Source of the DNA: an uncultured delta proteobacterium
GTDB taxonomy: Bacteria; Desulfobacterota; BSN033; UBA1163
DNA: 64,000 nucleotides
Direction: 5' to 3'
Assembly (NCBI GenBank): GCA_963708295.1
Contig: CAVPSJ010000004.1
Location: 832,001-896,000 of the forward strand
Part shown: positions 33,166-60,754 of the stretch, piece after piece
Layout: each line of letters opens with the position of its first letter
Numbering within the stretch: the first letter of the stretch is position 1
Translations under genes and position numbers: made by a program
The notes under the pieces: model-generated
The model's input: the letters and a program-made list of their open reading frames with translations, nothing else
What the model was told of the DNA's origin: nothing
The model's database searches: none

Positions 33166-33181
33166 TGGCACATTTTTCGCA
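33166..33181 (+). promoter_or_regulatory. Sigma-54 (-24/-12) promoter
   Basis: TGGCACATTTTTCGCA = GG-N10-GC, divergent from the activator gene. Confidence 0.75.
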
Positions 33182-33384
33182 ATGATCTTTATAGACGTCT
33201 TCATCGCTGTCAATTCATGATCCCGGGCATCACATCTCTTCATGTCCAATCAAAGTTCTGAATCCTGATTTCTATGAGAAGCACTATGCCCAGGGTATGA
33301 TCACCGAAGAATAGAAGGATCACATCAAGGTGTGGCGTCAGGAAAGGTGATGGCGGGAAAACAGCAGGACTGGGAAGGGCTGTT

Positions 33385-34513
33385 GTGAAAGAGGAGACAA
33401 GTTCAAGAAGACGGGAATTCGCGAGCAAAACCCACAGCCTCACGAATAGCGGTCGTCATGTTGTTCTAAGGGGATCACAAGGCAGCAAGGGCAGCCGGAG
33501 AACTTCGAACGGTTCTGCAGATATCCTCCAAAGAACGAAGAAGATCGCTGTTGAGGAACACTGGGCGAATCAGGAGCTGAACGACCTACGGACCGAGTGG
33601 GGGAAGAGAACGAGATACCCCATTACTGTCGATCCAAAGGCCATCGGATACTCCTTCCCCAGGGCGCCGGACTTCGAGAAATTCCGTCTTCCTTTCATGG
33701 ACGAATTCGGCATCTGCCCTGCAGGTCATTTCAACAGGCTCCCCCGGCATTCAGGGGTACGCCGACGCGCAGACCGCCGTCACCAAGGCAAAGCAGATCA
33801 ACGATACACAGGCAGAAATCATTCGGAAGTACCCCGGACGCTTTGCGGGTTTTGCGGGCTTGCCCACCCAGGACCCGAAGGCCGCCGCCGATGAGCTCGA
33901 GCGGGCGGTGAAACAGTTGGGATTCAAGGGCGCCATGATACAGGGCAGCACCAACTGGGAGTATCTCGACGACGCGAAGTACTGGGTGATCTGGGAGACG
34001 GGCAGAAGCCCTGGAAGTGCCCATCTATCTGCATGTGCAGGAGCCTTCTTTTGATTCGGCAAAGTATACGCGGGACACCCCGAACTGACCGGTGCTACCT
34101 GGGCCTGGGGGGTCGAGACGGGCACTCATGCGCTCCGTATCATCAACGCCGGGGTCTTCGACGCATTCCCCAAGGCCACACTGATTCTGGGACACCTCGG
34201 TGAATCTCTTCCATATCTCCTTGGCCGTCTGGATGAGGGGTACGTCATGGCTGCCAAGAGCGGCAGAAAGCTCCAGAAGCGGCTTTCCGAATACATCAGG
34301 AGTAACATTCTCGTCACGACGAGCGGCCTCTACAGACCGGAGGCGCTGTTGTGCGCGATAAGCGCCATGGGCGAGGACCGCGTCCTCTATTCCATGGACT
34401 ATCCCTTTGTGCATCCCAAGGCCTCCATCGACTGTTTTGAGAGCACTCCAATGAGCGATGAAGTGCGAGAGAAGATAGCACACCTGAATGCTGAACGATG
34501 GTTGAAGCTTTAG
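33385..34513 (+). CDS. Amidohydrolase-2 family protein, aromatic acid decarboxylase (LigW / gamma-resorcylate type)-like; frameshifts near 33715 and 34000-34080; start uncertain
   Basis: KIAVEEHW, PGRFAGFAGLPTQDP.AAADELER, PIYLH, GHLGESLP, VTTSG, RVLYSMDYPF. Confidence 0.85.
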
Positions 34514-34769
34514 GGAGGCATGCCTGCCGGACGGCGAAATCCTGTGACCGGACAGTGAGAAGGAGGCTGGTAGCCTTTTTGAGAGGAGGAACCACTATAA
34601 TCTACCGATCCAGTTCCAACCCAGAACGATGACGGGCGGAACCCGGTTTTTTGGAGATAGAAAAGTTGCGGAGAAAGGGGGTGTTCATTCTTCTCAAGAA
34701 CAAGAAAATCAAATCTCGGACGGAGTGGCTGTAATCATTAATTAAGCAATATTACAAAGGAGGCATGTC

Positions 34770-35969
34770 ATGAGGAAAAAGCAATGGATCGGAATTACGC
34801 TGTGTATTTGTCTGATGCTATGGGTGGCTTTAGCGCCCGCGTATGCTCAGCCGGCAGCACCCAAGGCCATAAAGATTGGGATTATGATTTCCATGACCGG
34901 TCCCGATGCCGCGATCGGAAGGCCGGCCAAAGACGGTTACGAAATGGCAGCGGCAAAAATCAATAAGGACGGCGGTGTTTTCGTCAAGGAATACGGCAAA
35001 AAAATACCTCTTGAAATTTCAATCCTGGATATGGAGACCAACCCGGAGAAGGCGATCGCCCGAGCGGAGGCATTCAATCAACAAGGCGCTTCTATTGTCT
35101 GCGGCACGACCATGATGAGTGGGTCTTCCGATGTCTTTGAAAAGAATAAGTTACCTGCCATCACCTCATTGGTGACCAATGTCGCGCTTTGGGAGAGGGG
35201 CTTTAAGTACTATTTTGGTCTCAGTAAGCTCAACGATGGGATCGTCAATGCAGTCTTCGGTGCCTTCGGAAAAATCCCCAAGGATCAAAGGCCAACCAAG
35301 TGGGCCATGTGGCAAGAGCAAACCGATTGGATCGCTGAGATGTTCAATCTCGCGAAAGAGAAAGCGGCGGCAGCAGGGATTACCTTCGTATCCCATAACA
35401 ATTATCAGGTGCTAACTCCGGATATGAGCAAGCTCATCCTTGAGGCAAAAAAGGCCGGTGCAGAGGTGGTCTTTTCCGGGCCCGTCCCTCCGGATTGCAT
35501 TACGATGCTTAAGCAGATGAAGGAGCTTGATTATAATCCAAAAGCCATCATTATGATCAGGGGGTCCGACGATCCCGTCTGGGTGAAGATGACAGGCGCC
35601 ATGGGTGATTATGTCATCGGATGTCCTGACTGGCATCCTGCGCTAAACTACCCCGGCGTGAAGGAATTGAATGCCGAATACAAGGCCAAGTTTGGAACGG
35701 AAACTCACATTGTTGTCGGGAATGCCTATGCCTCGATTCAGGTCGCAGCCGCGGCGATCGAGAAAGCCGGCACGCTGGACAGAACGAAAATCAGGGATGC
35801 GATTGCCAGCATCGATGTACCGACCGTTTTTGGACAGATCAAGTTTAATGAGAAATGCCGGCGAATCAATGCTCCCCTTGTCGTTACGCAATGGCAGAAG
35901 GGAAAAATGGAGATGGTCTGGCCGGATGACATGAAGTCAAAGGCAATGATTTATCCCCGACCCAAGTAG
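34770..35969 (+). CDS. ABC transporter substrate-binding protein (Leu/Ile/Val family)
   Basis: Signal peptide, AIEKAGTLD, TVFGQIKF, QWQKGK. Confidence 0.92.
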   Translation: MRKKQWIGITLCICLMLWVALAPAYAQPAAPKAIKIGIMISMTGPDAAIGRPAKDGYEMAAAKINKDGGVFVKEYGKKIPLEISILDMETNPEKAIARAEAFNQQGASIVCGTTMMSGSSDVFEKNKLPAITSLVTNVALWERGFKYYFGLSKLNDGIVNAVFGAFGKIPKDQRPTKWAMWQEQTDWIAEMFNLAKEKAAAAGITFVSHNNYQVLTPDMSKLILEAKKAGAEVVFSGPVPPDCITMLKQMKELDYNPKAIIMIRGSDDPVWVKMTGAMGDYVIGCPDWHPALNYPGVKELNAEYKAKFGTETHIVVGNAYASIQVAAAAIEKAGTLDRTKIRDAIASIDVPTVFGQIKFNEKCRRINAPLVVTQWQKGKMEMVWPDDMKSKAMIYPRPK

Positions 35970-35986
35970 CATGTCATAAATTTCGT

Positions 35987-36026
35987 GCATTCCAACCGCT
36001 GAGTTTCGCGGTTGGAATGCTTTCTT
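35987..36026 (+). terminator. Stem-loop after the binding-protein gene (terminator or mRNA stabiliser)
   Basis: 13-bp stem GCATTCCAACCGC/GCGGTTGGAATGC followed by TTTCTT. Confidence 0.65.
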
Positions 36027-36052
36027 ATTGAGCTGTAAAGATCGAACGGATT

Positions 36053-36378
36053 CTAAATCCGAAGCACGGAATACGAAATTCGAAACAAAAAAGATGTCGA
36101 ATCCTAAACTCGAAACCCCTGCCTTCGCCGGAGCGGCTTCGCACAGGCAGGCTAAACTCTAAACAAACCCATTCGACAGGGCCCATGGCCCTGAGTCTTA
36201 TCGAAGGGTCAAATGTCCCTGCCTACCGGCAGGCAGGCAAAGCACAAACTCAAAACCATATGACTTAGAAAATATTCGGTTTAATTTTTGAGCAGTCAAA
36301 ATTACTTTTTGAGTTTTATATTTAGGATTTAGAGTTTAATGTTTAGAGTTTGAACAAATTCGGATTTCGGATTTTTTG
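36053..36378. repeat. Composite intergenic element: ~7-nt periodic A-rich and T-rich arms with embedded REP-like hairpins
   Basis: AAATCCGAAGCACGGAATACGAAATTCGAAAC ... TTCGGATTTCGGATTT; related to 45652-45800. Confidence 0.6.
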
Positions 36379-36449
36379 AGGTCCTATTGCTTCCGGCCGG
36401 GACGGGTCAGGTCAAAAGACGCCCATCGGCCACAACACGCAAGTAAGAC

Positions 36450-37181
36450 ATGAAATTGCTTGAAGTAGACAACGTTTCGAAAGCGTTTGGCGGTGTGCTT
36501 GCTGTCAATCGGGTGAGCTTTCATCTCGACCAGGGAGAGGTGCTGGGACTGATTGGTCCTAACGGAGCGGGCAAAAGCACGCTGTTCAACATCATATCGG
36601 GGATTTTCAAGCCGAACACAGGTACGGTGAGGTTCAATAATAAAGATATCACCGGGATGGCTCCTTATAAGATATGCGAGAGCGGGATAGCCCGGACCTT
36701 CCAGTTGGTTAAACCTTTCAGCCGGTTAACTTCACTGGAAAACGTGATGGTAGGAAGAGCTTACGGCAGCCATCCGGCTCGGGATACAAGAGAGGCCCGC
36801 ATCGAATCGGAGCAGATATTGGCTTTTACCCGCTTGGCAAACAAACAGACAAGGACGGCGGGCATGCTTAGCCTGGTGGACCGGAAGCGGTTGGAAATTG
36901 CCCGAGCCCTGGCCACGAAACCTAAGTTGCTCTTACTGGATGAGATGATGGCAGGTTTGAACCCGGCAGAGCTGGATGATGCGATTGCGCTGGTGAAGTC
37001 AATCAGAGATTCGGGCATCAGCCTCATCGTTGTTGAACATGTCATGAAAGTGATCATGGGGATTTCGGACAGGGTCATTGTGCTGAAGACCGGCGAGAAA
37101 ATAGCGGATGGCACCCCTCAGGAGATTGTCTCCAATCGCGAGGTTGTGAAGGCCTATTTAGGAGGAGAAGTCTCGTGTTAA
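36450..37181 (+). CDS. ABC transporter ATP-binding protein (LivG-like)
   Basis: GPNGAGKST, GIARTFQ, LLLLDE. Confidence 0.93.
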   Translation: MKLLEVDNVSKAFGGVLAVNRVSFHLDQGEVLGLIGPNGAGKSTLFNIISGIFKPNTGTVRFNNKDITGMAPYKICESGIARTFQLVKPFSRLTSLENVMVGRAYGSHPARDTREARIESEQILAFTRLANKQTRTAGMLSLVDRKRLEIARALATKPKLLLLDEMMAGLNPAELDDAIALVKSIRDSGISLIVVEHVMKVIMGISDRVIVLKTGEKIADGTPQEIVSNREVVKAYLGGEVSC

Positions 37182-37885
37182 AGATTACCCATATCGATGT
37201 CTATTATGGTGACCTTCAGGCATTATGGGATGTCTCGCTGACGATCGGAGAAGGGGAAATCGTGACGCTGGTTGGTTCCAATGGCGCGGGCAAGAGCACC
37301 CTCATGAATACCATCTCAGGGTTACTCAAAATTCGAGCCGGATCCATTGAATTTCGTGGCATTCGCCTCGACAGCTTGCCTGCACACTCAATTGTAGAAC
37401 ATGGCATTTCCATGGTTCCTGAGGGAAGAAGAATATTCCCGCAGATGAGTGTCCTGGAGAACCTGGAGATGGGTGCTTCGATTCACGCAGCGCGCAAGGT
37501 AAGGCAAAAAACGCTCAAAGAGATCTATGAGGTCTTTCCGATTTTGGGAGAGAGAGCCAAACAAAGGGCGGGGACGCTGAGCGGGGGAGAGCAACAGATG
37601 TTAGCCATCGGCAGGGCCCTGATGTCACAACCGAAGGGTCTCTTAATCGATGAAATGTCCCTGGGTTTGAGCCCTCTTGTGGTGCAAGAACTCTCCCGTG
37701 TTATTCAGAGCATCAATAAGGCAAACCATTTGACCATTTTCGTTGTCGAGCAGGATGTGCCACTGGCTTTATCGATGGCTCACCGTGGTTATGTGATAGA
37801 AAATGGGCGTATTATAGACCAGGGTGACGCGAAGTCTCTGTTATGCAGTGCACGTATTAAAGAGGCCTATTTGGGGGCGGCGTAG
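37175..37885 (+). CDS. ABC transporter ATP-binding protein (LivF-like)
   Basis: GSNGAGKST, VPEGRRIF, LSGGEQQML. Confidence 0.93.
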   Translation: MLKITHIDVYYGDLQALWDVSLTIGEGEIVTLVGSNGAGKSTLMNTISGLLKIRAGSIEFRGIRLDSLPAHSIVEHGISMVPEGRRIFPQMSVLENLEMGASIHAARKVRQKTLKEIYEVFPILGERAKQRAGTLSGGEQQMLAIGRALMSQPKGLLIDEMSLGLSPLVVQELSRVIQSINKANHLTIFVVEQDVPLALSMAHRGYVIENGRIIDQGDAKSLLCSARIKEAYLGAA

Positions 37886-37904
37886 AGAAGAGGGAAGTGG
37901 GTCT

Positions 37905-38792
37905 ATGGAAATCGTATTCCAGACGATGGCCAATGGTTTGTTGGTCGGGGCTCTCTACGGGCTGGTCGCGCTTGGGTTTGCTCTGCTGATGGGCGTCATG
38001 AAATTCCTCAATACGGCTCATGGGACATTCATCATCCTGGGTGGCTATCTGAGCTACTGGCTCCTGGAGCTTTGGGGGATTGACCCATTCCTTTCGCTAC
38101 CCTTGGTCGTCATGGCCATGTTCCTCATCGGGATCGTCTTCTATAAGCTGGCTCTTTCGCCCTTGCTGAAATTACCGAACATCGGAATGCGAATTAACAC
38201 TTCCATGCTGATTACCTTTGGCTCGATCTGGGTCCTGGATAACACGATGACCTTGCTCTGGACCCCTGATGTCCGAAGTATCATGACCTCCTACACCGGA
38301 CAGACCTTAAAGCTTCTCGGCGTTAGATTCAGCCTCACCGGTCTCGGCGGAGTGGGCGTTGCTGTTCTGGTGGCATTGGCGCTCTATTTTATTCTCAGCG
38401 GGACTTATTTTGGCAAACATATCCGGGCGGCGACGCAGGATGCTGTCGCAGCCAGCCTCTGTGGAATCAACGTTCAACGTACCTATTTATTTTCATGTGG
38501 CATAGCGATCGCGCTGGCAGGCGTGGCCGGGATGGTGGTCGTTTCAAGTTATTCCATCAGCTCGACCGCCGGCATCGGTTGGCTATCCTCAGCGTTTGTG
38601 GTCATGGTTCTTGCGGGTGAAGGAAACATCAATGCCATTATTCCTGCCGGTATGCTCCTGGGGCTGATTGAGTCGGCAGGTCTTCTGGTGGTGGGGGTTT
38701 CGTACCGCCAGGCGATCGCGCTGATCGTCTTTATCATCGTCCTCATGATCAAACCCCAGGGATTGTTCGCCAAAAAGGAGTATGGATCCTGA
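37905..38792 (+). CDS. ABC transporter permease (LivH-like)
   Basis: GALYGLVALG, NTAHG, FGKHIRA..QD, KPQGLF. Confidence 0.92.
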   Translation: MEIVFQTMANGLLVGALYGLVALGFALLMGVMKFLNTAHGTFIILGGYLSYWLLELWGIDPFLSLPLVVMAMFLIGIVFYKLALSPLLKLPNIGMRINTSMLITFGSIWVLDNTMTLLWTPDVRSIMTSYTGQTLKLLGVRFSLTGLGGVGVAVLVALALYFILSGTYFGKHIRAATQDAVAASLCGINVQRTYLFSCGIAIALAGVAGMVVVSSYSISSTAGIGWLSSAFVVMVLAGEGNINAIIPAGMLLGLIESAGLLVVGVSYRQAIALIVFIIVLMIKPQGLFAKKEYGS

Positions 38793-39727
38793 TGAATTGG
38801 AAGAAACTGTCCATCCTCGGGGTTTTGGTCATGGTGTTTCTGATTCCTCCTTTGATTTGGGATATCGGAACCAGTGTCCTGAATCTGCTGATCATGCTGT
38901 TTATCTATATCATCCTCGCTCAGAGCTGGAACCTGATGGGAGGCTATACAGGACAGATTAATCTGGGTCTGGCTGCTTTCTTTGGTTGCGGGACGCTGGT
39001 GACGCATTTCATCTGGAAGGCTGGGGTCCCCTTTTATCTGGCGATGACAGCGGGTGGAGTCGCTGCCATGTTGTTGGCCGTGGTGATTGGTTTGCCTACC
39101 CTCAGGTTGAAAGGGATGTATTTTGGCATAGGGACGTTCGCATTGGCAGAGGTGTGCCGAATCGTGGTGGGGAGCACTTTCCATCGGATGCTTAAGATGC
39201 CCAGTTCCTATGTTGCTTCCTATAGCCTTGTTTCCCGTTATTACGTTGCCTTTGTTGTAGCCGTCCTGGCAATCGTCATCGTTTACCTGGTGACCCATTC
39301 AAAGCTGGGACTGGGAATGGTTGCGGTTCGGGACGACGAAACAGCAGCCCAGGTGACCGGTGTCAACACGTTCAAATGTAAGGTGTTGGCATTATTCATC
39401 AGCGCACTGTTGGCCGGACTGGCCGGGGGCGTCTTCGCTTACTTGCGGCTTTCCTTCCATTACATCTTCATGATGTTCAGTCCTGTCTGGACGTTTGAAC
39501 CCCTCATGGCAGCGATCATCGGCGGTGCCGGCACATTAGCGGGACCGATTATAGGCAGCATTTTCCTGGTCATCCTTTCAGAGATCTTTGCGCTTAAATT
39601 GGGAGAAACACATCTCATCATATTCGGGTTTCTGTTCATTCTGGTCGTGATGTACTTCCCCTCCGGACTGGTCGGGTCTATAGACCAAATTCGGCAGAAG
39701 ATAAGTGGTGTTGGCCGGAAGAGCTAA
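38792..39727 (+). CDS. ABC transporter permease (LivM-like)
   Basis: SWNLMGGYTGQINLG, LRLKGMYF, AVRDDE, IIGGAGT..GP. Confidence 0.92.
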   Translation: MNWKKLSILGVLVMVFLIPPLIWDIGTSVLNLLIMLFIYIILAQSWNLMGGYTGQINLGLAAFFGCGTLVTHFIWKAGVPFYLAMTAGGVAAMLLAVVIGLPTLRLKGMYFGIGTFALAEVCRIVVGSTFHRMLKMPSSYVASYSLVSRYYVAFVVAVLAIVIVYLVTHSKLGLGMVAVRDDETAAQVTGVNTFKCKVLALFISALLAGLAGGVFAYLRLSFHYIFMMFSPVWTFEPLMAAIIGGAGTLAGPIIGSIFLVILSEIFALKLGETHLIIFGFLFILVVMYFPSGLVGSIDQIRQKISGVGRKS

Positions 39728-39777
39728 TCTGAAAGGAAAACGGATTGTTTTCTTACGACAACTCAAGGAGGGTTGAA

Positions 39778-40692
39778 GTGATTCCAAAGAAAAAGATTAT
39801 TGGCTTATCCTGTGGAAGAGTGAACGGCAACAGTGAAATTCTTTTAAAGGAAGCTGTGATGGGAGCGGAGGAGATCGGAGTCCAATCAGAAATCATCCGC
39901 GCCATGGAGCTGAGAGTCAAACACTGCACGGGTTGTGAAGCCTGCTCCATGGCCATGGCCCGGGGAAAGGAATCAAGATGCGCGATCAAAGACGATGATG
40001 TCGAGTGGATTCTGGAAAAGGTCCTGGTGGAGGATTGCGGTCTCATCGTCAGTACCCCGGTCTATCATTTAAGGTCCAACGGATGTTTTGAGATTATTAA
40101 TGAGCGAATGCTTCCAACGATGTTCAGGAATCCGGGGATTCTGAAAAAGACAAGAGTAGGAGCGATCATTTCTGTCGGCGGGGGGGAGCCCGAATGGACC
40201 CCCTTAGGGCTCACATCGGCCAATATCTTTGTCCAACATACCCGAAAACTGGTCGATCAAATCCAGGTGAATTTCGTGGGACGCCCGGGCGCTGTTTTGG
40301 CGAGACCGGAGGTCCTCCAGCGGGCCAGGGAATTGGGACGAAGAGTTGCCAGGGCAATGAAGGTGCCGATTGAAGAAGTGAAATACTTGGGCGAAGACAA
40401 AGACGTTTCTTGCCCGGTCTGCCACTGCAACGTCGTGCAGGTGTTTGAGAAATTGCCGGATGTCTACTGCCCGGTATGCTGGGTCCATGGTGTCCTATCT
40501 GCCGAGGGAGGCAAAATGAAGGTGAAGTGGAACGAAGAGGATGCAAAGCATCCCCGGTTTTCCGAAAAAGGGGTTTTCACGCATTTGGAATTGATCAAAA
40601 ACCTTCAGAAAAAATTCTTTACAGAAGATCAGGACAAAGTCAAAGCACTGATGCCAAAATATACAGCGTACGGCAACATTGTAAAACCCTAA
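39778..40692 (+). CDS. Extended iron-sulfur flavoprotein with a C-terminal CxxC..CxxC domain
   Basis: GLSCGR..GNSE, CTGCEAC...C, CPVCHC...CPVCW. Confidence 0.85.
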   Translation: MIPKKKIIGLSCGRVNGNSEILLKEAVMGAEEIGVQSEIIRAMELRVKHCTGCEACSMAMARGKESRCAIKDDDVEWILEKVLVEDCGLIVSTPVYHLRSNGCFEIINERMLPTMFRNPGILKKTRVGAIISVGGGEPEWTPLGLTSANIFVQHTRKLVDQIQVNFVGRPGAVLARPEVLQRARELGRRVARAMKVPIEEVKYLGEDKDVSCPVCHCNVVQVFEKLPDVYCPVCWVHGVLSAEGGKMKVKWNEEDAKHPRFSEKGVFTHLELIKNLQKKFFTEDQDKVKALMPKYTAYGNIVKP

Positions 40693-40793
40693 CCCCACTC
40701 CCACCCCACCCTTCCCCTCCCCCTGAAGGGGAGGGAAATCGCTATCTTCCTCCCCCTTCAAGGGGGAGGTTAGGAGGGGGATGGGATTTGTCG
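40690..40793. repeat. GC-rich REP-like double hairpin; inverted copy of the core of 13248-13336
   Basis: CCCCACCCTTCCCCTCCCCCTGAAGGGGAGGG ... CCTCCCCCTTCAAGGGGGAGGTTAGG. Confidence 0.75.
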
Positions 40794-40843
40794 AAGTAGT
40801 ATAATTATGTCTTCTCAAAGATGGACTTATTTGTAGCTGTTAA

Positions 40844-42151
40844 ATGATATCGAAAGGTCCTCCCCAGGTCAGAATAGCCCTTCGCAATTGTGGTGAGATC
40901 GACCCCGGAAATATCGATCACTATATCGGCCGCGGCGGGTACAGCGGACTGGTCAGGGCTCTGAAGATGGTTCCTGAAGAGGTGATCGAAGAGGTGGGTA
41001 GGTCCGGGCTCCGGGAGCGAGGCGGGGACGGATTTCCCGCGGGAAAGAAGTGGCGCCTCAGTTTCAATGCACCAGGCAGTGAGAAGATTGTGATCTGCAA
41101 TGCCGCAGAAGGCGACCCGAATTCTCTCACGGCCCGGGCCCTGCTGGAAGGAGACCCCCATTCCGTCTTAGAGGGAATGGGCATTGGTGCCTATGCCATT
41201 GGAGCCGGCCTGGGGTGGATCTATATTAATGCTGAATACGGATTGGCGATTAACAGACTCAGGACTGCTTTGAAGCAAGCGGAGGATCATAGGTTTCTAG
41301 GGGATCATCTTCTGGATTCCAACATCCCTTTCCGCATCGAGGTTAAAGAAGGGACGGGCAAACTCGCCTGCGGCGACGAGACTTTCCTGATCAACGCCAT
41401 AGAAGGTAAGCAAACCATGCCTTTCGTTTGTTCTTCTCACCCTCCCGTATCCGGGCTGGGGGGTAAGCCAACCCTCATCCATCAGGCAGAGACCTGGGCC
41501 CATGTCTCTGCTGTCATGGAGAAGGGTGCAGAATGGTACGCTGGCTTCGGCACTGAGCAAAGCAGGGGGACGAAAGTTTGGAGTTTATCGGGAAAGGTGA
41601 TGCATTCCGGGTTGATCGAGGTCCCCATGGGCATACCTCTCCGTGAAATTGTTTATGACATCGGAGGAGGCCTCCCGGATGGCAAGTCTCTAAAAGCAAT
41701 CCGGGTCGGCGGTTCCACAGGCGGTTATCTACCGCCAAGTTCCCTGGACCTGCCCATTGACGAGGAGCATCTGTCCGCTGCCGGGACCCTCATGGGGTCC
41801 GGAAACATTCTGGTGATCGATAGCGATGCCTGCATCGTTGATCAAGCGAAGTGCTCTCTCTCCTTCATCCGGAGTGAATCGTGCGGCAAGTGCGTTTTTT
41901 GCCGTGAAGGTACGATGCAAATGGCAGAAATTCTGGCGGACATTACCGAAGGCAGGGGAAAAGCTCATGATATCGACCTGCTGTTAGAGTTGGGGGAAGG
42001 TCTTAAGTTGGGGGCTCAATGCGATCTGGGCAGGACGGCAGCTTATCCGGCCCTCACCGCGATCCGGTATTTTCGCGAGGAACTTGAAGCGCATATCAAG
42101 GATAGAAAGTGTCAGGCGCGCGTCTGCAAAACCCTTGAGCCGTCGACGTAG
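40844..42151 (+). CDS. NuoF/HydB-like FMN, [4Fe-4S] subunit
   Basis: SGLRERGGDGFP.GKKW, CNAAEGDP, LEGDPH, ESCGKCVFCREG...CDLG. Confidence 0.9.
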   Translation: MISKGPPQVRIALRNCGEIDPGNIDHYIGRGGYSGLVRALKMVPEEVIEEVGRSGLRERGGDGFPAGKKWRLSFNAPGSEKIVICNAAEGDPNSLTARALLEGDPHSVLEGMGIGAYAIGAGLGWIYINAEYGLAINRLRTALKQAEDHRFLGDHLLDSNIPFRIEVKEGTGKLACGDETFLINAIEGKQTMPFVCSSHPPVSGLGGKPTLIHQAETWAHVSAVMEKGAEWYAGFGTEQSRGTKVWSLSGKVMHSGLIEVPMGIPLREIVYDIGGGLPDGKSLKAIRVGGSTGGYLPPSSLDLPIDEEHLSAAGTLMGSGNILVIDSDACIVDQAKCSLSFIRSESCGKCVFCREGTMQMAEILADITEGRGKAHDIDLLLELGEGLKLGAQCDLGRTAAYPALTAIRYFREELEAHIKDRKCQARVCKTLEPST

Positions 42152-42236
42152 GCCCAGGGAGGGTGATGCAGCACCCTCCCAAATCCCACGGATCAGTGAG
42201 GTATTACGGGGATAGTCCCCGAAAGGAGAAAGTAGA

Positions 42237-44412: not shown

Positions 44413-44477
44413 GAGATTTCTGAAAAGGCCAGAAATCTCTGGTTACAGCGATTATGAAACGATTACAACGAAGCAAC

Positions 44478-44578: not shown

Positions 44579-44644
44579 GGAGGTGAGGTGGGATTAATCA
44601 TCTTAGAGAAACTGTGAGTATCCCTTCAACCAGGAGAACTTGAA

Positions 44645-45646: not shown

Positions 45647-45651
45647 GGCTC

Positions 45652-49369: not shown

Positions 49370-49481
49370 GGGCGAGACAGGCTGAAATGGAGGTGTAAGA
49401 GTAAGCACAGCCGCGAGAACGGAGCGGCATACGCAAAAGAGGGATGAACGAGTTAGATTCAATACAAAAGGAGGTATCTAC

Positions 49482-50455: not shown

Positions 50456-50529
50456 CGGAGCGGCGAAATCGAGCAAGCACCGGTCTTATGCCTTTATCAG
50501 GAATCTCAAAATGAAGGAGGGGTAAAGTC

Positions 50530-52872
50530 ATGAAGAAAAATTTGCTTATCCTGGTGATGGGCCTTTGCCTGATCCTCATGTCCGCCATGTTGGCTCCTGT
50601 GCCCGCTTTCGCCGAGAAAACCAAGGCCGGACAAGCAAAAGAGGCAATTAAGGGGAAAAGGTTATTAGAGGGGGTCTTCGGCGGTCCCGTGCAAGGGCTT
50701 GATTACAAAACACCGACTATTTCCGGCATAACCAACGAAAAGGGTGAGTTCAAATACCGCCTGGGGGAAACAGTCACCTTCTCTATCGGCGGACTGGTGC
50801 TCGGGGCTTCACCCGCTCGCAATTTGATTACCCCGGCCCACTTGGCGATTGAGGTCGCCGGGGATGCCATGAAATTACGTAATCAGAAGGTAACCAACAT
50901 TGCCAGACTGATTCAAAGTCTGGACTCGGATAGCAATCTGGAAAACGGCATCACCCTGACGGATGATGCAAAGAATACCGTTCAGAAATACCGTTATCGG
51001 ATAAACTTCGACCAGCCTGAACAGGTATTTGCGCAAAACCCCGATGTGTCTGCGCTTTTTGCTGAACTGAAACTTCCGTTGCGAAACCCGGCCGAAGCGA
51101 GAAACCACCTGCGCCGTACGCTCATGGGCATTATGAAGTTGACCGATGTGAGAATCCCCACCCGTGACGGCTCTTACCTTCTGGCCGACGTTTACCGCCC
51201 GATTAAAGATGGCAAATACCCGGTGCTGATGACGCTGGGCGCCTACGGGAAGGCTTTCACTTTCGGATGTATCTGCAATCCGGCTGACTTGTTGAAGTTC
51301 GAACAAATCGAGGACAACTATTTTAACGGAATTGCGCCCGCTCCCTCCACCTTCACCGACCCCAAAGTAAAGGGACATCCCGTGGTTCCTCACGTGGCTG
51401 AGCACTTCGAACGCGCCAACAGTGTGGACTGGGTCCCCAATGGCTATGTCGTCGTGCATGTTGATGAGAGGGGTACCTGTAACAGCCCGGGAACATTCGA
51501 GCAGTTCAGCCTCCAGGAAGCTAATGACTACTATGACGCTATAGAATGGGCGGGAACGCAGAAATGGAGCAACGGTAATGTGGGCTTATGGGGGGCGTCC
51601 TACTATGCCATGACGCAATACACTGTTGCCCAGCTTCAGCCGCCGCATCTGAAGGCCATGGTGCCGATTGGCGGCGACCTCAATTCATACCGGGACTACA
51701 TTTATTCGGGCGGCGGCCTTTATAATCCGTTCAACTTCGTCGCCCGAAACTCCTGTGGCGAATGGAAGGGCGTGGACTGGGTCCCTATCGCCCTGGCCAA
51801 TCCCTTTGATGACCCTGCAATATACGGCGCGTCAGGCACACTTTGCGTGAGCGCCAACCCGGACAGGATTACTGTGCCGTTCTGGAGTGCCATGGGCACG
51901 GAAGGAACCATCCACACCCGAGGCAGCAGCGATGCATTCGTCCAGGCTGCCTCCAAGCATAAGAAATTGCTCATACTCTCCGAACCGGGCATTCATTTCT
52001 GGTCCTATGCCAAGGAGTTTTTCGAAAGCTACAAGGCATTCTTCGACTACTGGCTCAAGGGTGTAAAGAATGACATTATGAAAGAGCCGCCGGTACGGAT
52101 GATGGTTCGCACGGGTTGGACCGGTTACTACTGGCAATACGAGAACGAATGGCCTGTTGCCCGGACCAGGTATACTAAGTACTATCTTGAGGCCATTCCG
52201 TCGAGTTTCCCCGGCAATGATAAGAGGAAAGAATTCTTGCGCCTCGGACCCGGCGTACCGGCTTCGGAGGCCAAAACCACCTATTCCGCGGATGTGAAAT
52301 TCGGGGTTGACTCTCCCTGGTCTTACGGTGTTTCTTTCGTCACAGAACCTCTGAAAGAAGATACGCTGATAGCGGGCTATATCAAGGCGGTGCTTTGGGT
52401 ATCTTCCAGCTCTCATGACATGCAGATTCACGCTTACGTCAGGGTCATGGACGAGAACAACCAGGAAGTCTCCTTCGCAACGGGCAACCCTGGGATGAAT
52501 AGACTCTACCCGGTAGGACAGGGCGCTCTTAAAGTCTCCCATCGGAAACTGGACCCGGCCAGGTCCACGGTCTACCGACCCTATCATACTCACCAGAAGG
52601 CGGACTACCAGCCCTTGATTCCGGGGGAAATTGTTGAGGCCCAGGTTGAGCTCTGGCCGACGACTGCCCTGATAAGAAAAGGCTGGCGCATCAGACTTGA
52701 CGTGCAACCAGCTACCGGTGAGGGTTTCATGGCACCGCTCATCGACCCGCAGGATAGTAAGTACCAGGCAGGCGCGTCCAATACCATTTATACGGGTCCG
52801 GAGCATCCCTCTTACGTGCAACTTCCTTTAGTGCCGGCAAATCTTGGAAAGCAAACAAGGGCCCGCGATTGA
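50530..52872 (+). CDS. Secreted CocE/NonD hydrolase with an extra N-terminal domain
   Basis: Signal peptide; TRDG..LADVYRP, GAYGK, WSNGNVGLWGASYY, PPHLKAMVP. Confidence 0.9.
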   Translation: MKKNLLILVMGLCLILMSAMLAPVPAFAEKTKAGQAKEAIKGKRLLEGVFGGPVQGLDYKTPTISGITNEKGEFKYRLGETVTFSIGGLVLGASPARNLITPAHLAIEVAGDAMKLRNQKVTNIARLIQSLDSDSNLENGITLTDDAKNTVQKYRYRINFDQPEQVFAQNPDVSALFAELKLPLRNPAEARNHLRRTLMGIMKLTDVRIPTRDGSYLLADVYRPIKDGKYPVLMTLGAYGKAFTFGCICNPADLLKFEQIEDNYFNGIAPAPSTFTDPKVKGHPVVPHVAEHFERANSVDWVPNGYVVVHVDERGTCNSPGTFEQFSLQEANDYYDAIEWAGTQKWSNGNVGLWGASYYAMTQYTVAQLQPPHLKAMVPIGGDLNSYRDYIYSGGGLYNPFNFVARNSCGEWKGVDWVPIALANPFDDPAIYGASGTLCVSANPDRITVPFWSAMGTEGTIHTRGSSDAFVQAASKHKKLLILSEPGIHFWSYAKEFFESYKAFFDYWLKGVKNDIMKEPPVRMMVRTGWTGYYWQYENEWPVARTRYTKYYLEAIPSSFPGNDKRKEFLRLGPGVPASEAKTTYSADVKFGVDSPWSYGVSFVTEPLKEDTLIAGYIKAVLWVSSSSHDMQIHAYVRVMDENNQEVSFATGNPGMNRLYPVGQGALKVSHRKLDPARSTVYRPYHTHQKADYQPLIPGEIVEAQVELWPTTALIRKGWRIRLDVQPATGEGFMAPLIDPQDSKYQAGASNTIYTGPEHPSYVQLPLVPANLGKQTRARD

Positions 52873-52917
52873 ACAGCGAAAACCGCGGGAGGGAGATGAC
52901 TATGACCTGATGAAAGT

Positions 52918-53060
52918 ACGGTTTGGGCCCTTCTTCTCGGATATCGACAACAAGGGCAGGGATGTGAACCACTCGGGGGGAAATATGACTCGTACCCAGA
53001 TACCTTCTATTCCTCCGAAATATCAGGCCGGCGATTAAGTTTACTGTTAAACGGCGACAA
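52918..53060 (+). pseudogene. Decayed copy of the 3' end of the CocE gene at 47600-49369
   Basis: DNA similarity to 49232-49380, including CCTCCGA.ATATCAGGCCGGCGATTA. Confidence 0.75.
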
Positions 53061-57006: not shown

Positions 57007-59116
57007 TTGACCGCGATCTCATTGAATATTGACGGACGGGACATTGAGACGAAAAAGGGGAGGACAGTGCTCGAAGCCGCACTGGAGGCAGGGGTCTATA
57101 TTCCCCATCTCTGTCACCACCCTGATCTCACGCCTGTCGGAGGTTGCGGGTTGTGTCTTGTAGAGATCGAAGGGATGCAAGGGCTGCCCACTTCTTGCAC
57201 GACACCCGCGGAAGAGGGAATGAGGGTGAAGACAAAGACGCCCCAGGTGGACCGGATGCGCCGTCTCGCCATGGAACTGATGCTGTCCGGTCATCCTCCC
57301 GAGTGCACGGTATGCTCCCAGTATCTCAACTGTGAGCTGCAATCCGTGAAGCAATACATCGGGACGAGCGAAGAACTGCGCGTGAGAAGGCGATCAAAAC
57401 CCTTTGCCGCTAATACCGCCAACCCTCTGTTCGTTCACGACCCGGCCAGGTGTATCCTGTGCGGCCGGTGCGTGAGGGCTTGCCATGACCTGCGGGGAGT
57501 CGACGTTCTCTCGTTTATGAAGAAGGGCAAAGAAGCCTATATCGGGACGGGCTCCGATTCTCCCCTCGCCGATGCCGGGTGCAGGTTCTGTGGCGCTTGT
57601 GCGGAGGTTTGCCCCACCGGCGCCCTGAGGGATAAAGAAGAACTGACGAGGGGAAGGAGCCGCAGAGCAGCTCGCGTTCCCTGCAGATACACCTGTCCGG
57701 CGGAAATCGATATCCCCCGGTATATCCGTCTCATCCGTGAAAAAAAATATTCGGAAGCGACAGCGGTCATTCGTGAAAAGGTGCCTTTCCCAAAGGTCCT
57801 TGGGTATGTTTGCAACCACCCCTGTGAAGCGGTCTGTCGTCGCGGCGAGGTGAACGAGTCAATTTCTATAAAGGAACTGAAGCGTTTTGCCGCCGAGCGG
57901 GACCATAACAAGTTATGGGCAAAGAACTCCCGATAAAGCGGAACCAACAGACAAGCGGGTGGCGATTGTCGGGTCAGGGCCGGCGGGACTGACTGCGGCG
58001 TACTACCTTTCAAAACTGGGTCATGCGGTGACCGTCTTCGAAGCCTTACCTTTTCCAGGCGGGATGACGCGCATCGGCATCCCCGAATATCGGCTGCCTC
58101 GAGATGTACTGGAGGAAGAGATTCGGGAGATCGAAAGCAGGGGTGTGGAAATAAGGACCAGCTCGCGGGTGGATTCACTGGATCCTCTCTTTGAAGAGGG
58201 ATACCACGCCATCCTTGTTGCCGTTGGCACCCATGAGGGTCAGAAACTGCCCATTCCCGGAGCCGACCAGGACGGAGTGCTGCTGAGCATGGATTTGCTC
58301 GGGAATGTGAATCTCGGGAAAAAAGTGAAAATCGGCAAAAAGGTGTTGGTGCTGGGCGGGGGAAATGTGGCCTTTGATTGTGCCCGTGTTGCCCGACGGC
58401 TCGGTGCGGACGAAGTCCATTTGGCTTGTCTGGAGTCGAGGGATAAGATGGTGGCCACGCCTGGCGAGATTTCAGAAAGCGAGGAAGAAGGTATCGTGAT
58501 TCACCCTTCCCGGACATTCACGAGGATTTTGGGGGAACATGGGCATATGATCGGCGTCGAATGCCTGAATGTGGACTCCTTCGAATTCGATGAGGAAGGC
58601 AAAGCCCAGATTAACGTTGTTGAAGGTTCAGAGCACCTCCTGTCAGCCGATACGGTCATCTTCGCGATCGGCCAGCGTCCGCAGATCCCCGAGCGGTTTG
58701 AGTTGATGACCGGGAGGGGAAACCGAATTGAAGTTGACCCCGGCACCTTTCAAACCAGCAGGGAAGGTGTCTATGCTGCCGGGGATGCGGTCACGGGAAC
58801 CACATCCGTGATCGAGGCGATCACTTCAGGCCGGAACGGGGCCGTCATTGTGGACAAATACCTCGGCGGCAGCGGTGAGATCGATGAAGTGTTGGTGCCC
58901 GTTGAAAAGCCCGAACCTGGGTTGGGCCGAAGAGATGGGTTTGCCCGCGAGAACCGGTTTGAAAATTCCCGTTTGGCACCAGATAAGCGGGTGATCAGCT
59001 TTTGCCGGATTGTCCATGATCTTGACGAGAAGGCAGCGGTTGCCGAGTCGCACCGGTGCCTGCAGTGCGATCTCAGGCTCAAGATGACACCGGTGAAGTT
59101 TTGGGGAGACTATTAG
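57007..59116 (+). CDS. NuoG-like Fe-S N-terminus fused to a GltD/NfnB-like FAD/NAD(P)H oxidoreductase (frameshift near 57930)
   Basis: IPHLC..GCGLC, HPPECTVC..NCELQ, CILCGRCVRAC, CRFCGACAEVCP, TCPA..VCNHPCE, VGSGPAG, GGGNVAFD, RCLQCD. Confidence 0.9.
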
Positions 59117-59299
59117 CCAGAAAGCAGAAAGCGGTAAGCAGTAAAAGAACAGTGATCAGTCATCAGTTGCCAGTTAACAGAACGGTCGAGGCAGATAGAA
59201 AGCGGACACGGAACACGGACACGCTTGAGTGCCGAAGCACATCAGCGCGCAGGCACGGTCACGTCATTTTTATAGCATTTCGCAAAGGAGGAGGAGACC

Positions 59300-60754
59300 A
59301 TGAACCAACTTGAAGCTGACATCATCGTTGTTGCAGCAGGGGCTTCCGGGTTGCCGGCGGCCATCACCGCAGCCCAGGGCGGCGCCAAGGTCATCGTGTT
59401 TGAGAAAGGATCGACGACCGGCGGGACGGGCAATATGGGGATGGGGCCCTTTGGCGTGGAAAGCAGACTGCAGCGCTTGAAGCAGGTAAAACTGACAAGA
59501 GACGAAGCCTTTAGGATATTCATGGACTACACCCACTGGCGTGTCGATGCCCAGTTGGTGAGGGCCTACATCGACAAAGCAGCCACCGGCATCGAATGGC
59601 TGGAGAAACTGGGAGTTGAATTTGTGGAGCCGGCTACTTATTTCCCCGGAGGAAATTACACCTGGCATCTGGTGAAGCCGGCAACGGGTCAGCCCGGACC
59701 GATGGCTTCGGGCACCATGATGAAGATTTTGACGGACAGGGCAAAAGAACTAGGGGTTAAAATTCTTCTGCAGACGCCGGTCAATAAGATTCTTAAACAA
59801 GGGGACCGCGTTACAGGGGTGGCGGCGGAAGACAAATCCGGGGAGCCTATCCAAGCCAAGGCCAAGGCCGTGGTCATCGGAACCGGCGGATTCGGCGACA
59901 ATCCGGACATGATCAAAAAATATACTGGATTTGAATGGGGCAAGGATCTCTTCTCCTTCAGGATCCCCGGCATGGTGGGCGACGGGATCCGAATGGCCTG
60001 GGAAGTGGGAGCTGCGCCGACTGAAATGACCATGGAAATGATCTACGGGATGCCCGGCGAATTGGATCCGAGACTCCATGAAACCTTTCGTCAGCCCCAC
60101 CTCATGGTCAACCTGTTGGGGGAGCGCTTCTTCAATGAAGAGATCATGCCCAATACCACATTCACGGGCAACGCAATCGCCAGGCAAAAAAATAGAGCGG
60201 CCTTCCTCATCTTCGATGAAAACATAAAGAAGCATATGGAGACCGTCGGATACGATTTCGTGAGCGTTGTTTTCCCTTTCACGAAAGTTGACAATCTCGA
60301 TGCCCTGATCAAAGAGGCCTTTGATAAAGGATACAAGGATGTATTCGTCGCGGATTCTTTGGAAGAATTGGCCGGTAAGACAGGAATCGACCCGGATGGG
60401 TTGAAAGGAACTGTGGAACAGTACAATAAATTCTGCGAGAAAGGCTGGGATGATATCTTTAACAAAAGTCATAAATATCTCAGGCCGGTGAGAACCCCAA
60501 AATTTTACGCCGCAAGACATTTACCCGGTGCGTATGGCACTCTCGGGGGAATTAAGATCAACCACAAGACAGAGGTTCTGAACAAGGATTGGAAGAAAAT
60601 TCCAGGGCTTTATGCGGTAGGAACGGACGCCTGCACAATATACGGCGACAGTTATGTCTTCGTTCTCCCGGGCAACACCATGGGCTTTGCCATTAATACC
60701 GGTCGCATTGCCGGGGAAAACGCGTTGGAATACATCAAGTCCGTCAGTCTGTAA
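59300..60754 (+). CDS. FAD-dependent oxidoreductase (fumarate reductase flavoprotein-like superfamily)
   Basis: AAGASG, IGTGGFG, GDGI.MA, GERFFNE, GTLGGIKIN, IPGLYAVG, GRIAG. Confidence 0.9.
   Translation: MNQLEADIIVVAAGASGLPAAITAAQGGAKVIVFEKGSTTGGTGNMGMGPFGVESRLQRLKQVKLTRDEAFRIFMDYTHWRVDAQLVRAYIDKAATGIEWLEKLGVEFVEPATYFPGGNYTWHLVKPATGQPGPMASGTMMKILTDRAKELGVKILLQTPVNKILKQGDRVTGVAAEDKSGEPIQAKAKAVVIGTGGFGDNPDMIKKYTGFEWGKDLFSFRIPGMVGDGIRMAWEVGAAPTEMTMEMIYGMPGELDPRLHETFRQPHLMVNLLGERFFNEEIMPNTTFTGNAIARQKNRAAFLIFDENIKKHMETVGYDFVSVVFPFTKVDNLDALIKEAFDKGYKDVFVADSLEELAGKTGIDPDGLKGTVEQYNKFCEKGWDDIFNKSHKYLRPVRTPKFYAARHLPGAYGTLGGIKINHKTEVLNKDWKKIPGLYAVGTDACTIYGDSYVFVLPGNTMGFAINTGRIAGENALEYIKSVSL

Follow-up and report, generated by a model that had tools for sequence, protein, structure and literature searches.

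The gut pathway for flavones and flavonols, as set out in part of PMC7862272, comprises a flavone reductase (FLR), CHI, an enoate reductase and a phloretin hydrolase, and is known from Flavonifractor plautii and Eubacterium ramulus. Here we analysed a 64,000-nucleotide stretch from an uncultured delta proteobacterium (G000:C4:832001-896000, hereafter the window; the assembly has 4.95 Mb in 20 contigs and is 91% complete and 5.6% contaminated), in which a gene cluster at 33166-60754 resembles that pathway in outline. The cluster encodes three FLR-family flavoproteins (Isf1, Isf2 and Isf3), what would be a second ene-reductase step and a candidate enzyme for the final cleavage, and FLR-like, Chalcone_N and DAPG_hydrolase-like genes form a trio 4.5-7 kb past the window. 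Unlike the gut pathway, the second reductase is an FAD_binding_2 protein with NuoF and NuoG-GltD partners instead of an OYE-type enzyme, no CHI lies inside the cluster, and the hosts are environmental anaerobes of wetlands and sediments. The putative cleavage enzyme, CocE2, is also of another kind: it is a CocE/NonD serine hydrolase tied to an acyl carrier protein (ACP), an AcpS-type phosphopantetheinyl transferase, a Pta-type phosphate acyltransferase and a butyrate-kinase family kinase (Buk). We propose, with about even confidence, that these genes form the middle of a horizontally acquired island through which plant polyphenols, most likely flavonoid-type compounds with a phloroglucinol- or resorcinol-type ring, would be broken down anaerobically, and in which acyl groups would be relayed from CocE2 to ACP, Pta and Buk.

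Another close system is the phloroglucinol pathway of Clostridium scatologenes, described in part of PMC10470551, whose phloroglucinol reductase PGR, dihydrophloroglucinol cyclohydrolase DPGC and triacetate-forming dehydrogenase TfD belong to SDR, cyclase and 3HCDH-type families and whose TAL belongs to BKACE. Genes of the SDR, cyclase, 3HCDH and BKACE families stand beside the module in five related loci (L017, L028, L029, L030 and L044), and the proposed relay, like that pathway, would end in an acyl-phosphate and ATP. In contrast, the window cluster contains no gene for PGR, DPGC, TfD or TAL, and the known pathway, within the portion of the source drawn on here, uses CoA and no carrier protein.

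The presence of a dedicated small carrier protein for an acyl thioester in a degradative system also recalls citrate lyase and malonate decarboxylase. The ACPs of these enzymes carry a phosphoribosyl-dephospho-CoA group installed by CitG/CitX-type enzymes. Among the Pfam matches of the 27 open reading frames (ORFs) scanned in the window, there was no CitG/CitX (MdcB/MdcG)-type enzyme and no lyase or decarboxylase subunit; the cluster instead contains an AcpS-type transferase, which implies a phosphopantetheine group, and the acyl group would leave via Pta and Buk without a lyase or decarboxylase partner. The reaction proposed for the cluster Pta, acyl-ACP + phosphate -> acyl-phosphate + ACP, is that of PlsX, which moves acyl groups from ACP to phosphate. 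PlsX belongs to Pfam FA_synthesis and serves lipid synthesis, whereas the cluster gene is a PTA_PTB member. CocE2 shares its two-domain fold family and an aligned nucleophile Ser with SACOL2612 of Staphylococcus aureus (3IB3/3III) and with the cocaine esterase CocE, but neither of these is tied to an ACP; CocE hydrolyses its ester with water, and 3IB3 is a structure without known function. We found no description of a CocE/ACP/Pta/Buk module in the literature searched, although the gene-neighbourhood supplements of PMC10470551, which lay outside the search, might show these genes. The pathway context is known; the proposed carrier-protein relay is undescribed in that literature.

The conserved AcpS-Pta-Buk-ACP-CocE2 core

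A scan of species-representative genomes yielded 43 related loci, labelled L013-L055. Synteny was analysed by tblastn and ORF clustering of 29 of these (L013-L040 and L047), which together with the window make 30; L041-L046 and L048-L055 stand outside the clustering but are included in the 43-locus comparison. All five core genes are present in conserved order in 10/43 loci (L013-L017, L019, L022 and L027-L029), and four of the five in 5 further loci (L018, L026, L037, L040 and L047). The record titles of these four- and five-gene loci name Thermodesulfobacteriota, Chloroflexota and Acidobacteriota. ACP-bearing loci as a whole come from six phyla, namely Thermodesulfobacteriota ("delta proteobacteria"), Chloroflexota, Acidobacteriota, Bacillota, Pseudomonadota (Thalassolituus) and Actinomycetota. 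An earlier note on this DNA, made from the letters and their ORFs, had taken the genes for a functional unit and named as contrary outcomes that they fail to co-occur elsewhere or always accompany a ketosynthase and match a characterised pathway. The core recurs in other phyla, in the same order and without a ketosynthase; recurrence in that order indicates a co-occurrence far beyond chance.

Contig ends cut many of the 30 clustered loci, and the family counts are therefore lower bounds: CocE was found in 30/30, Buk, Pta and ACP in at least 20/30 each, AcpS in at least 14/30, the fused NuoG-GltD in at least 12/30, the FAD reductase in at least 11-12/30, FLR-like genes in at least 10/30, SDR in at least 9/30, NuoF in at least 8/30, 3HCDH in at least 7/30 and the cyclase in at least 6/30. 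The flavodoxin-ferredoxin fusion also occurs in L014, L015 and L019, and orthologous sets of the Liv-type ABC genes flank the module in L016, L019 and L022. Besides the window, 19 loci place ACP directly upstream of CocE, including every locus with the full core. Reduced sets are found as well: L032 and L033 (Thalassolituus) and L034 (Actinomycetota) have ACP and CocE with Pta and without Buk. Taken together, the reduced sets bring the recurring minimum down to ACP, CocE and Pta. Since a set lacking the kinase could not activate an acid, L032-L034 argue for a flow from CocE to ACP to Pta.

No ketosynthase, thiolase or ligase was detected beside the core in the loci examined (27 + 51 + 39 ORFs scanned). 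Inside the window cluster, the Pfam scan likewise matched no ketosynthase, adenylation enzyme or CoA ligase, as the earlier note had stated; a PaaK-like ligase lies just outside, on the opposite strand at 61958-63166. The same note's view that this ACP and its phosphopantetheinyl transferase stand outside any fatty acid synthase, polyketide synthase or nonribosomal peptide synthetase system is likewise supported. In the loci examined, there is no candidate for loading ACP from a free acid except Buk with Pta, and none for unloading it except Pta or CocE.

The ACP itself falls below every NCBIfam AcpP cut-off (best scores 45.4 bits versus 66, and 36.8 versus 70.45). In its 20 orthologues, Asp-35, Ala-38, Lys-39, Ser-40, Met-61, Arg-64, Arg-65 and Thr-68 are invariant. 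The retained attachment residue Ser-40, taken with the missed AcpP cut-offs, identifies the protein as a carrier protein but not as AcpP; a separate ACP, 32% identical to it, is encoded on contig C11. The invariant A-K-S at the attachment site is accompanied by a basic stretch, F-M-E-F-R-R-K-K-T in the ACP of the window, in which Phe-60 and Lys-67 are nearly invariant. Ordinary ACPs are acidic in the matching region, and the basic stretch may mark a docking face for CocE2 or Pta. Prediction of a CocE2-ACP complex, run without controls, gave a score of 0.00 against a mark of 0.32, which is evidence neither way.

All three CocE proteins of the cluster exceed the TIGR00976 cut-off of 66.3 bits by a wide range (203.2, 203.9 and 215.1 bits for CocE1, CocE2 and CocE3, respectively) and contain both Peptidase_S15 and PepX_C. 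Ser-203 of CocE2 aligns with the G-x-S nucleophile Ser of CocE and 3IB3, and Asn-202, Ser-203 and Gly-204 are invariant in 25 sequences; with the nucleophile retained, an acyl-enzyme is expected. CocE2 has 2667 database relatives at E <=0.001 among 7999 candidates scored. The homologues among the matches listed (120) are 68-95% identical and come from several phyla, with source names including Desulfobacteraceae, Deferrisomatales, Syntrophorhabdales, Dehalococcoidia and Anaerobacterium; the CocE2-type gene of Anaerobacterium chartisolvens is 69% identical. A quick maximum-likelihood search on 52 CocE proteins grouped all 18 that adjoin an ACP in a single clade of 29 rows (SH-aLRT 99), and none of the 23 rows outside this clade has an ACP. 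CocE1 belongs to a sister clade of 16 rows, all of them ACP-less, and CocE3 forms a long branch within the paralogues that lack an ACP. Pta passes NF007233 (331.6 bits, cut-off 310) and scores just below the TIGR00651 equivalog (306.8 bits, cut-off 311.2), while Buk passes both TIGR02707 (435.9 bits, cut-off 289.1) and NF002834 (461.5 bits, cut-off 222).

In the genome studied here, Buk and Pta are the sole members of their families (one PTA_PTB match), and AcpS is the fourth ACPS-family gene. No Buk orthologue closer than 29% identity was found in 40 relatives, 14 of which belong to the same genus. A CocE match at E <=1e-100 was present in 5/300 other genomes of the phylum, four being 72-86% identical (CocE2-type) and one 44%. 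The lack of Buk in the 40 relatives and the presence of a CocE2-type gene in only 4/300 genomes of the phylum argue that the core was horizontally acquired. Judged by these distributions, the module is one that travels as a unit and is not vertically inherited in this genome. Genes of other kinds were noticed at two related loci. Three tandem phage-integrase genes lie beside an FLR-like/FAD reductase/CocE1 trio in an Acidobacteriota metagenome-assembled genome (L045:9896-13200), and in a close relative the genes next after the cluster encode a PIN-domain protein and one like pRiA4b ORF-3 (L014:13628-15601). We regard them as hints at how genes move.

Flavone reductase homologues, putative polyphenol genes and the proposed relay

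The sole PDB relatives of Isf3 and Isf1 are the entries 7D38-7D3B, which PMC7862272 gives as those of FLR, at 180.7 and 128.7 bits, respectively. Residues 1-303 of Isf3 align to residues 1-293 of the 310 in FLR, and residues 17-309 of Isf1 to residues 2-301. The Isf proteins carry CxxCxxC...C and CPxC...CxxC motifs, which FLR shares; Isf2 stops after the second of them, without a C-terminal tail. The earlier note had called these proteins iron-sulfur flavoproteins, and the cysteine motifs are indeed present, but their identity is that of FLR homologues. His-271 and Ile-275 of FLR contact the A and C rings of flavone (PMC7862272, seen in part). A His and an Ile of both Isf3 and Isf1 align with these two residues, whereas the Lys-282 position is not conserved (FLR positions counted by hand from the alignment). 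As homologues of FLR, the Isf proteins point to flavonoid-type substrates.

FLR-like genes occur within 10 kb of CocE in 14/43 loci, and an OYE + Pyr_redox_2 reductase is found in four loci. The FAD reductase of the cluster has the vinyl phenol reductase VprA as its best NCBIfam match (336 bits, below the cut-off of 600), and in the PDB it matches flavocytochrome c fumarate reductase, urocanate reductase and several ketosteroid dehydrogenase entries. In L042, L044 and L045, an FLR-like gene, the FAD reductase and a CocE1-type gene form a trio without any ACP. The reductases thus do not need the carrier and probably act on free substrates, which speaks against the earlier suggestion that the acyl group is reduced while bound to ACP.

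Genes of phloroglucinol metabolism recur near the module. In L017, L028, L029 and L030, SDR, cyclase (PF04199), cupin and 3HCDH genes stand beside it, and in L044 they stand beside a CocE1-type gene. The SDR/cyclase/3HCDH/BKACE set is co-located in L029 but not in the window; the two cyclase and two BKACE genes of the genome are on contigs other than C4 or at a great distance on C4 itself, and its 3HCDH genes are elsewhere too. BKACE (TAL) is present in 5/5 module-bearing genomes and the phloretin-hydrolase family was found in 1/5, the completeness of these genomes not being established; the latter count leaves room for an enzyme that takes the place of phloretin hydrolase. We also considered CocE2 with ACP as a substitute for TAL and rejected it, given BKACE in all five genomes and beside the cyclase in L029. 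In the Actinomycetota locus (L034:4427-7117), ACP, CocE and Pta are accompanied by a molybdoenzyme that resembles pyrogallol hydroxytransferase (its first domain AhtL-like, 88.7 bits), a reductase of the OYE type, an SDR and a TetR regulator, neighbours that suggest a link to trihydroxybenzene metabolism.

The surroundings of the cluster in its own genome have a similar content. Past the window, on the minus strand (L062:4562-6977, G000:C4:900565-902977), an FLR-like gene, a Chalcone_N gene (30.7 bits, cut-off 25) and a partial DAPG/phloretin-hydrolase-like gene (DAPG_hydrolase 24.6 bits, cut-off 22.7) stand in a row. Beyond them come another Liv-type ABC set, two genes of the DHDPS family, one for an IclR regulator and an amidohydrolase paralogue that is intact and 61% identical to the orthologue in L015. 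A second pair, made up of an FLR-like fragment and a DAPG_hydrolase gene, is located at C4:293188-295690. Upstream of the cluster, 21423-26633 encodes a split SDR, an FAD_binding_2 protein of 501 aa and a truncated OYE + Pyr_redox_2 reductase of 542 aa (25005-26633), which we take to be the three families of the enzymes that convert isoflavones to equol. These reductases adjoin genes for a GntR regulator, a binding protein and a member of the DHDPS family. The canonical FLR/CHI/EnoR/PHY set is incomplete, with only FLR-like genes inside 33166-60754. Judged by its gene families, the region as a whole is a putative polyphenol island.

The recurrence of two reductase types, a cleavage enzyme and phloroglucinol genes matches the flavone route, in which two C=C reductions are followed by cleavage of a dihydrochalcone to phloroglucinol and an aryl-propionate. 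In the reading that we favour, an exported tannase and CocE3 would act outside the cell to remove acyl groups, and uptake of the aromatic product would fall to the Liv-type ABC importer. The FLR-like flavoproteins and the FAD reductase, whose substrates are predicted from their families, would reduce C=C bonds of the heterocycle or of a chalcone with electrons supplied by NADH or ferredoxin via NuoF, NuoG-GltD and the flavodoxin-ferredoxin. CocE2 would then attack the carbonyl of the reduced intermediate, most likely in a retro-Claisen cleavage of a dihydrochalcone- or acyl-phloroglucinol-type C-C bond, a reaction for which the known pathway uses phloretin hydrolase and water. The acyl-enzyme would be resolved by the phosphopantetheine thiol of the dedicated ACP, made holo by the cluster AcpS, and not by water. 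As gene order and family functions suggest, Pta would move the acyl group from ACP to phosphate and Buk would make ATP. Phloroglucinol released in this way would be degraded by PGR, DPGC, TfD and TAL-type genes, which lie elsewhere in this genome and beside the module in other organisms. There is precedent for parts of the scheme: BphD-like alpha/beta-fold serine C-C hydrolases work through acyl-enzymes, and PhlACB interconverts acyl-phloroglucinols through an enzyme thioester.

An ATP-yielding exit, already suggested by the earlier note, is the simplest reading of the ACP, Pta and Buk genes. It is possible, though doubtful, that they belong to a new form of substrate-level phosphorylation, in which a CocE/NonD serine hydrolase cleaves the C-C bond of a reduced flavonoid (retro-Claisen/retro-Friedel-Crafts) and passes the acyl group to ACP, with Pta serving as an acyl-ACP:phosphate transacylase and Buk producing one ATP per molecule. 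The NuoF/NuoG-GltD/FAD-reductase set may additionally couple ene-reduction to ferredoxin.

Several observations weigh against this interpretation. Pta and Buk score as ordinary acetyl-/butyryl-type enzymes, while flavonoid cleavage would yield an aryl-propionyl or aryl-acetyl group. Phloroglucinol clusters carry a phosphate acetyltransferase and an acetate kinase anyway, according to part of PMC10470551, and the adjacency of Pta and Buk could reflect such ordinary phloroglucinol-cluster enzymes. In a Clostridiaceae locus (L030), ACP and CocE occur with Buk and without Pta. Across all 43 related loci, neither a CHI-like nor a PHY-like gene was found closer than 10 kb to CocE. The Chalcone_N profile had no match in the 5 module-bearing genomes, but as it had none in any control genome either, that search carries no information. 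The genome itself has two DAPG_hydrolase-family matches, at 56.8 and 23.8 bits, so that CocE2 is not simply a replacement for phloretin hydrolase here. The amidohydrolase at the start of the cluster points to resorcylate and not to flavonoids, and the CocE/NonD enzymes of known structure are ester or amide hydrolases, not C-C hydrolases.

This last point bears on the interpretation given in the earlier note, which envisaged an anaerobic catabolic pathway for phenolic compounds with esters or lactones as the key substrate. The anaerobic, catabolic and phenolic parts of that interpretation agree with our findings. As to the key substrate, CocE2 would move the acyl group of an activated (phenolic) ester, depside or lactone, such as a dihydrocoumarin-type product of the ene-reductase, to ACP, and Pta and Buk would conserve the energy. 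We consider this rather unlikely. The solved relatives of CocE/NonD are ester hydrolases, the alpha-amino-acid ester hydrolases of the family transfer acyl groups, the window cluster contains a tannase and a third CocE, and a reductase followed by a hydrolase would also fit coumarin-type substrates. However, neither the tannase, which has one copy in the genome, nor CocE3 was found in any of the 43 related loci, and both have signal-peptide-like N-termini, as judged by eye, and seem to be exported esterases in an accessory role. L014 has CocE, FLR-like and flavodoxin-ferredoxin genes in that order and no CocE3, and in the window the last 78 nt of CocE2 are repeated after CocE3, a repeat that resembles a scar left when the second FLR-like gene and CocE3 were inserted. 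The absence of both esterases from the related loci and the copied CocE2 end mark them as local additions. Moreover, two ene-reductase types recur with CocE, a better fit to the two reductions of the flavone route than to a single one, and an ester or lactone substrate would leave the linkage to phloroglucinol genes unexplained.

A reductive resorcinol pathway was our first choice and was demoted once the FLR homology had been established. Here, imported resorcylate would be decarboxylated by the amidohydrolase to give resorcinol, ferredoxin-fed flavin reductases would convert this to cyclohexane-1,3-dione, CocE2 and ACP would open the ring thiolytically to 5-oxohexanoyl-ACP, and Pta and Buk would again yield ATP. 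Buk would fit the acetate and butyrate that are reportedly the products of resorcinol-fermenting Clostridium, in work attributed to Tschech and Schink (1985) and Kluge et al. (1990). The cluster also contains the flavodoxin-ferredoxin and Fe-S flavin modules, and the amidohydrolase orthologue L015:13072-14208 is nearest to gamma-resorcylate decarboxylases (3S4T/4QRO 243 bits, 2DVT 222 bits) compared with LigW at 195. Resorcinol reductase is ferredoxin-dependent and is followed by hydrolytic ring cleavage (PMC10470551, seen in part), and the gene for cyclohexane-1,3-dione hydrolase was not known as of 2025, going by part of PMC11780191. Our search of the resorcinol literature found no gene assignment for the reductive route. 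Because of the resorcylate-type amidohydrolase and the unassigned hydrolase gene, this route stays a live rival, but quite an unlikely one: only L015 and L030 among the related loci have the amidohydrolase with the module, the flavoproteins are homologous to FLR and have residues that align with its substrate contacts, the recurring neighbours are phloroglucinol-pathway genes, and release of free 5-oxohexanoate would waste the thioester needed for its further oxidation.

Operation in the opposite direction appears very unlikely. Buk and Pta would spend one ATP on activating a free acid, for example a hydroxycinnamate, to acyl-ACP, the FAD reductase complex would reduce the enoyl-ACP in a carrier-based caffeate respiration, and CocE2 would release or exchange the product. 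CoA-based caffeate respiration follows the same logic, the cluster has no ligase, vinyl phenol reductase is the best family match of the FAD reductase, and NuoF with NuoG-GltD resembles NADH/ferredoxin-linked modules. Against this direction, the ACP/CocE/Pta loci L032 and L033, having neither Buk nor the FAD reductase, cannot activate an acid in this way, and the FAD reductase accompanies CocE in the ACP-less loci L042, L044 and L045. Finally, it is highly improbable that there is no relay at all, with Pta and Buk being ordinary fermentation enzymes for phloroglucinol-derived acetyl-CoA or butyryl-CoA, CocE2 a plain hydrolase and ACP with AcpS in an unrelated or regulatory role: Pta and Buk do score as canonical enzymes, are the only such enzymes in the genome and have counterparts (phosphate acetyltransferase and acetate kinase) listed for phloroglucinol clusters in part of PMC10470551, but in 10 loci spanning three phyla they are flanked by AcpS and ACP, adjacency to ACP is limited to one CocE clade, nothing else in the loci could load or unload ACP, and the Thalassolituus ACP-CocE-AcpS-Pta set stands alone, with no fermentation or phloroglucinol genes in 21.7 kb.

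Gene inventory, transcription signals and reading frames

Window ORFs were annotated by Pfam and NCBIfam profile scans and PDB sequence matches. All long ORFs between 33385 and 60754 are on the plus strand, and every gene listed in the earlier note was found there, co-oriented and opposite the GAFTGA-containing activator (Table 1).

Table 1. Features of the cluster and its promoter region, with positions in the window
Feature	Position	Strand	Basis or remark
Sigma-54-dependent activator, 513 aa	31462-33003	-	Pfam Sigma54_activat 233 bits, AAA_lid_14, HTH_8; GAFTGA in translation
Two direct repeats, candidate activator binding sites	33049-33069 + 33098-33118	+	Repeat family D8
-24/-12 promoter-like element TGGCAC-N5-TCGCA	33166-33181	+	1 mismatch to TGGCAC-N5-TTGCW
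Amidohydro_2 decarboxylase-type gene, three frames in assembly	33535-34513	+	Pfam; intact orthologue L015:13072-14208
Liv-type ABC binding protein	34770-35969	+	Pfam Peripla_BP_6
Liv-type ABC ATPases	36450-37181, 37175-37885	+	Pfam ABC_tran x2
Liv-type ABC permeases	37824-38792, 38792-39727	+	Pfam BPD_transp_2 x2
FLR-like flavoprotein 1 (Isf1), 315 aa	39745-40692	+	FMN_red; PDB 7D38 128.7 bits
NuoF-like NADH/FMN/4Fe-4S subunit, 435 aa	40844-42151	+	Pfam Complex1_51K, NADH_4Fe-4S; nuoF_fam 372 bits, below 558 cut-off
CocE1, CocE/NonD hydrolase of ACP-less clade	42237-44032	+	Peptidase_S15 + PepX_C over two ORFs
AcpS-type phosphopantetheinyl transferase	44029-44412	+	Pfam ACPS 36 bits, cut-off 25
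Pta-type phosphate acyltransferase, 333 aa	44645-45646	+	Pfam PTA_PTB 351 bits
Butyrate-kinase family kinase (Buk), 378 aa	45876-47012	+	TIGR02707 435.9 bits
Atypical acyl carrier protein (ACP), 82 aa	47279-47527	+	Pfam PP-binding 28.5 bits
CocE2, ACP-linked CocE/NonD serine hydrolase, 591 aa	47594-49369	+	Best PDB match 3IB3, 336 bits
FLR-like flavoprotein 2 (Isf2), 257 aa	49482-50255	+	Pfam FMN_red 60.8 bits; without C-terminal tail as read
CocE3, divergent CocE/NonD hydrolase, 780 aa	50530-52872	+	Signal-peptide-like start, N-terminal extension
Duplicate of CocE2 3' end (49292-49369)	52975-53050	+	Repeat families D6, D12, 85-95% identity
Flavodoxin-ferredoxin fusion, 328 aa	53123-54109	+	Pfam Flavodoxin_3/5/1, Fer4_6; EFR1-family ferredoxin 63 bits, below 75 cut-off
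Tannase/feruloyl-esterase family protein, 534 aa	54138-55742	+	Pfam Tannase 311 bits; signal-peptide-like start
FLR-like flavoprotein 3 (Isf3), 320 aa	55783-56745	+	PDB 7D38 180.7 bits, residues 1-303
NuoG-like (2Fe-2S, 4Fe-4S) fused to GltD-like FAD/NAD(P) protein	57007-59116	+	Pfam; broken ~57934
FAD_binding_2 reductase, 484 aa, soluble fumarate-reductase/KstD type	59300-60754	+	Pfam; VprA 336 bits

The components expected of sigma-54-dependent transcription are present at the sequence level: an AAA+ domain with GAFTGA in the activator, a -24/-12 element and rpoN in the genome. The -24/-12 pattern has 21 matches in the window at <=2 mismatches versus 25.6 expected by chance, and since this count is not above chance, it is the placement of the element that supports it. 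The two direct repeats are 86% identical, lie 49 nt apart and are situated 48-117 nt upstream of the element. The N-terminal ~190 aa of the activator, its sensor region, match no Pfam family; activators 41-46% identical to it adjoin the module in L020, L022, L025, L026, L037, L040 and L047.

Terminator-like hairpins occur inside the cluster at 35987-36020, after the binding-protein gene, and at 44540-44570, after AcpS. The former is strong (13 pairs, including 8 G-C pairs, and a T-rich tail) and lies directly 3' of the binding-protein gene, where it may cause an excess of binding-protein transcript over that of the downstream genes. Four intergenic gaps of ~150-480 nt hold repeats, which are rich in TTCGAAA / TTCGGAT-type words (36055-36350, 40704-40785, 45649-45798 and 47013-47257); the Pta-Buk gap contains an inverted repeat (45649-45669 / 45768-45788). 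In four wetland/sediment runs, the repeat bins reach 10-100x the depth of the flanking genes, and there are contig joints between 36088 and 45765. The repeats are a multicopy intergenic element. An Rfam scan of 30000-64000 at E up to 0.1 matched no RNA family, and a look for RNA runs that contain this DNA found none.

In the assembly, 1-nt indels break the amidohydrolase, CocE1, the AcpS N-terminus and NuoG/GltD. Contigs of four independent wetland/sediment runs, compared with the window over 33001-53000, differ from it by compensating indels at 33714/33716, 33998/33999, 34060, 43616 and 44123 + 44160, exactly at the breaks. CocE1 has one extra base at 43616 in 4/4 runs, and AcpS, which matches its family only from residue 44, has an N-terminus garbled by two indels. 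For NuoG/GltD, whose break lies beyond the compared interval, the frame changes between 57933 and 57935 relative to the fused L014 orthologue; the orthologues in L014, L027, L030 and L036 are single fused proteins of ~690-716 aa, and the break at ~57934 is therefore also attributed to an error. Further genes of the window are split, namely the SDR at 21423-22279 (break at 21818-21824) and a radical-SAM/B12 gene at 13415-15240. The breaks are probably consensus errors of the assembly, and the consensus indel rate here is probably ~1 per 8 kb. Decay of the cluster into pseudogenes was rejected as the simplest explanation, because the 1-nt differences of the four runs fall precisely where the frames break and the window contains further split genes.

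Possible meaning for anaerobic polyphenol breakdown

The relay hypothesis is directly testable, as it involves five small soluble proteins. If true, catabolic carrier-protein systems would gain a third type, and there would be a Pta acting on ACP and a CocE/NonD enzyme that cleaves C-C bonds. Anaerobic polyphenol breakdown affects the carbon locked in peat and wetlands and enters the "enzyme latch" debate (PMC10470551, seen in part); it also affects which flavonoid metabolites animals receive from their gut microbes. The module would then have spread by gene transfer through anaerobes of wetlands, sediments and the gut. Energy-starved anaerobes would gain ATP from a step that is wasted as hydrolysis in the known pathway, a gain that would explain both the 68-95% identity of CocE2 across phyla, among the matches listed, and the mobility of the module.

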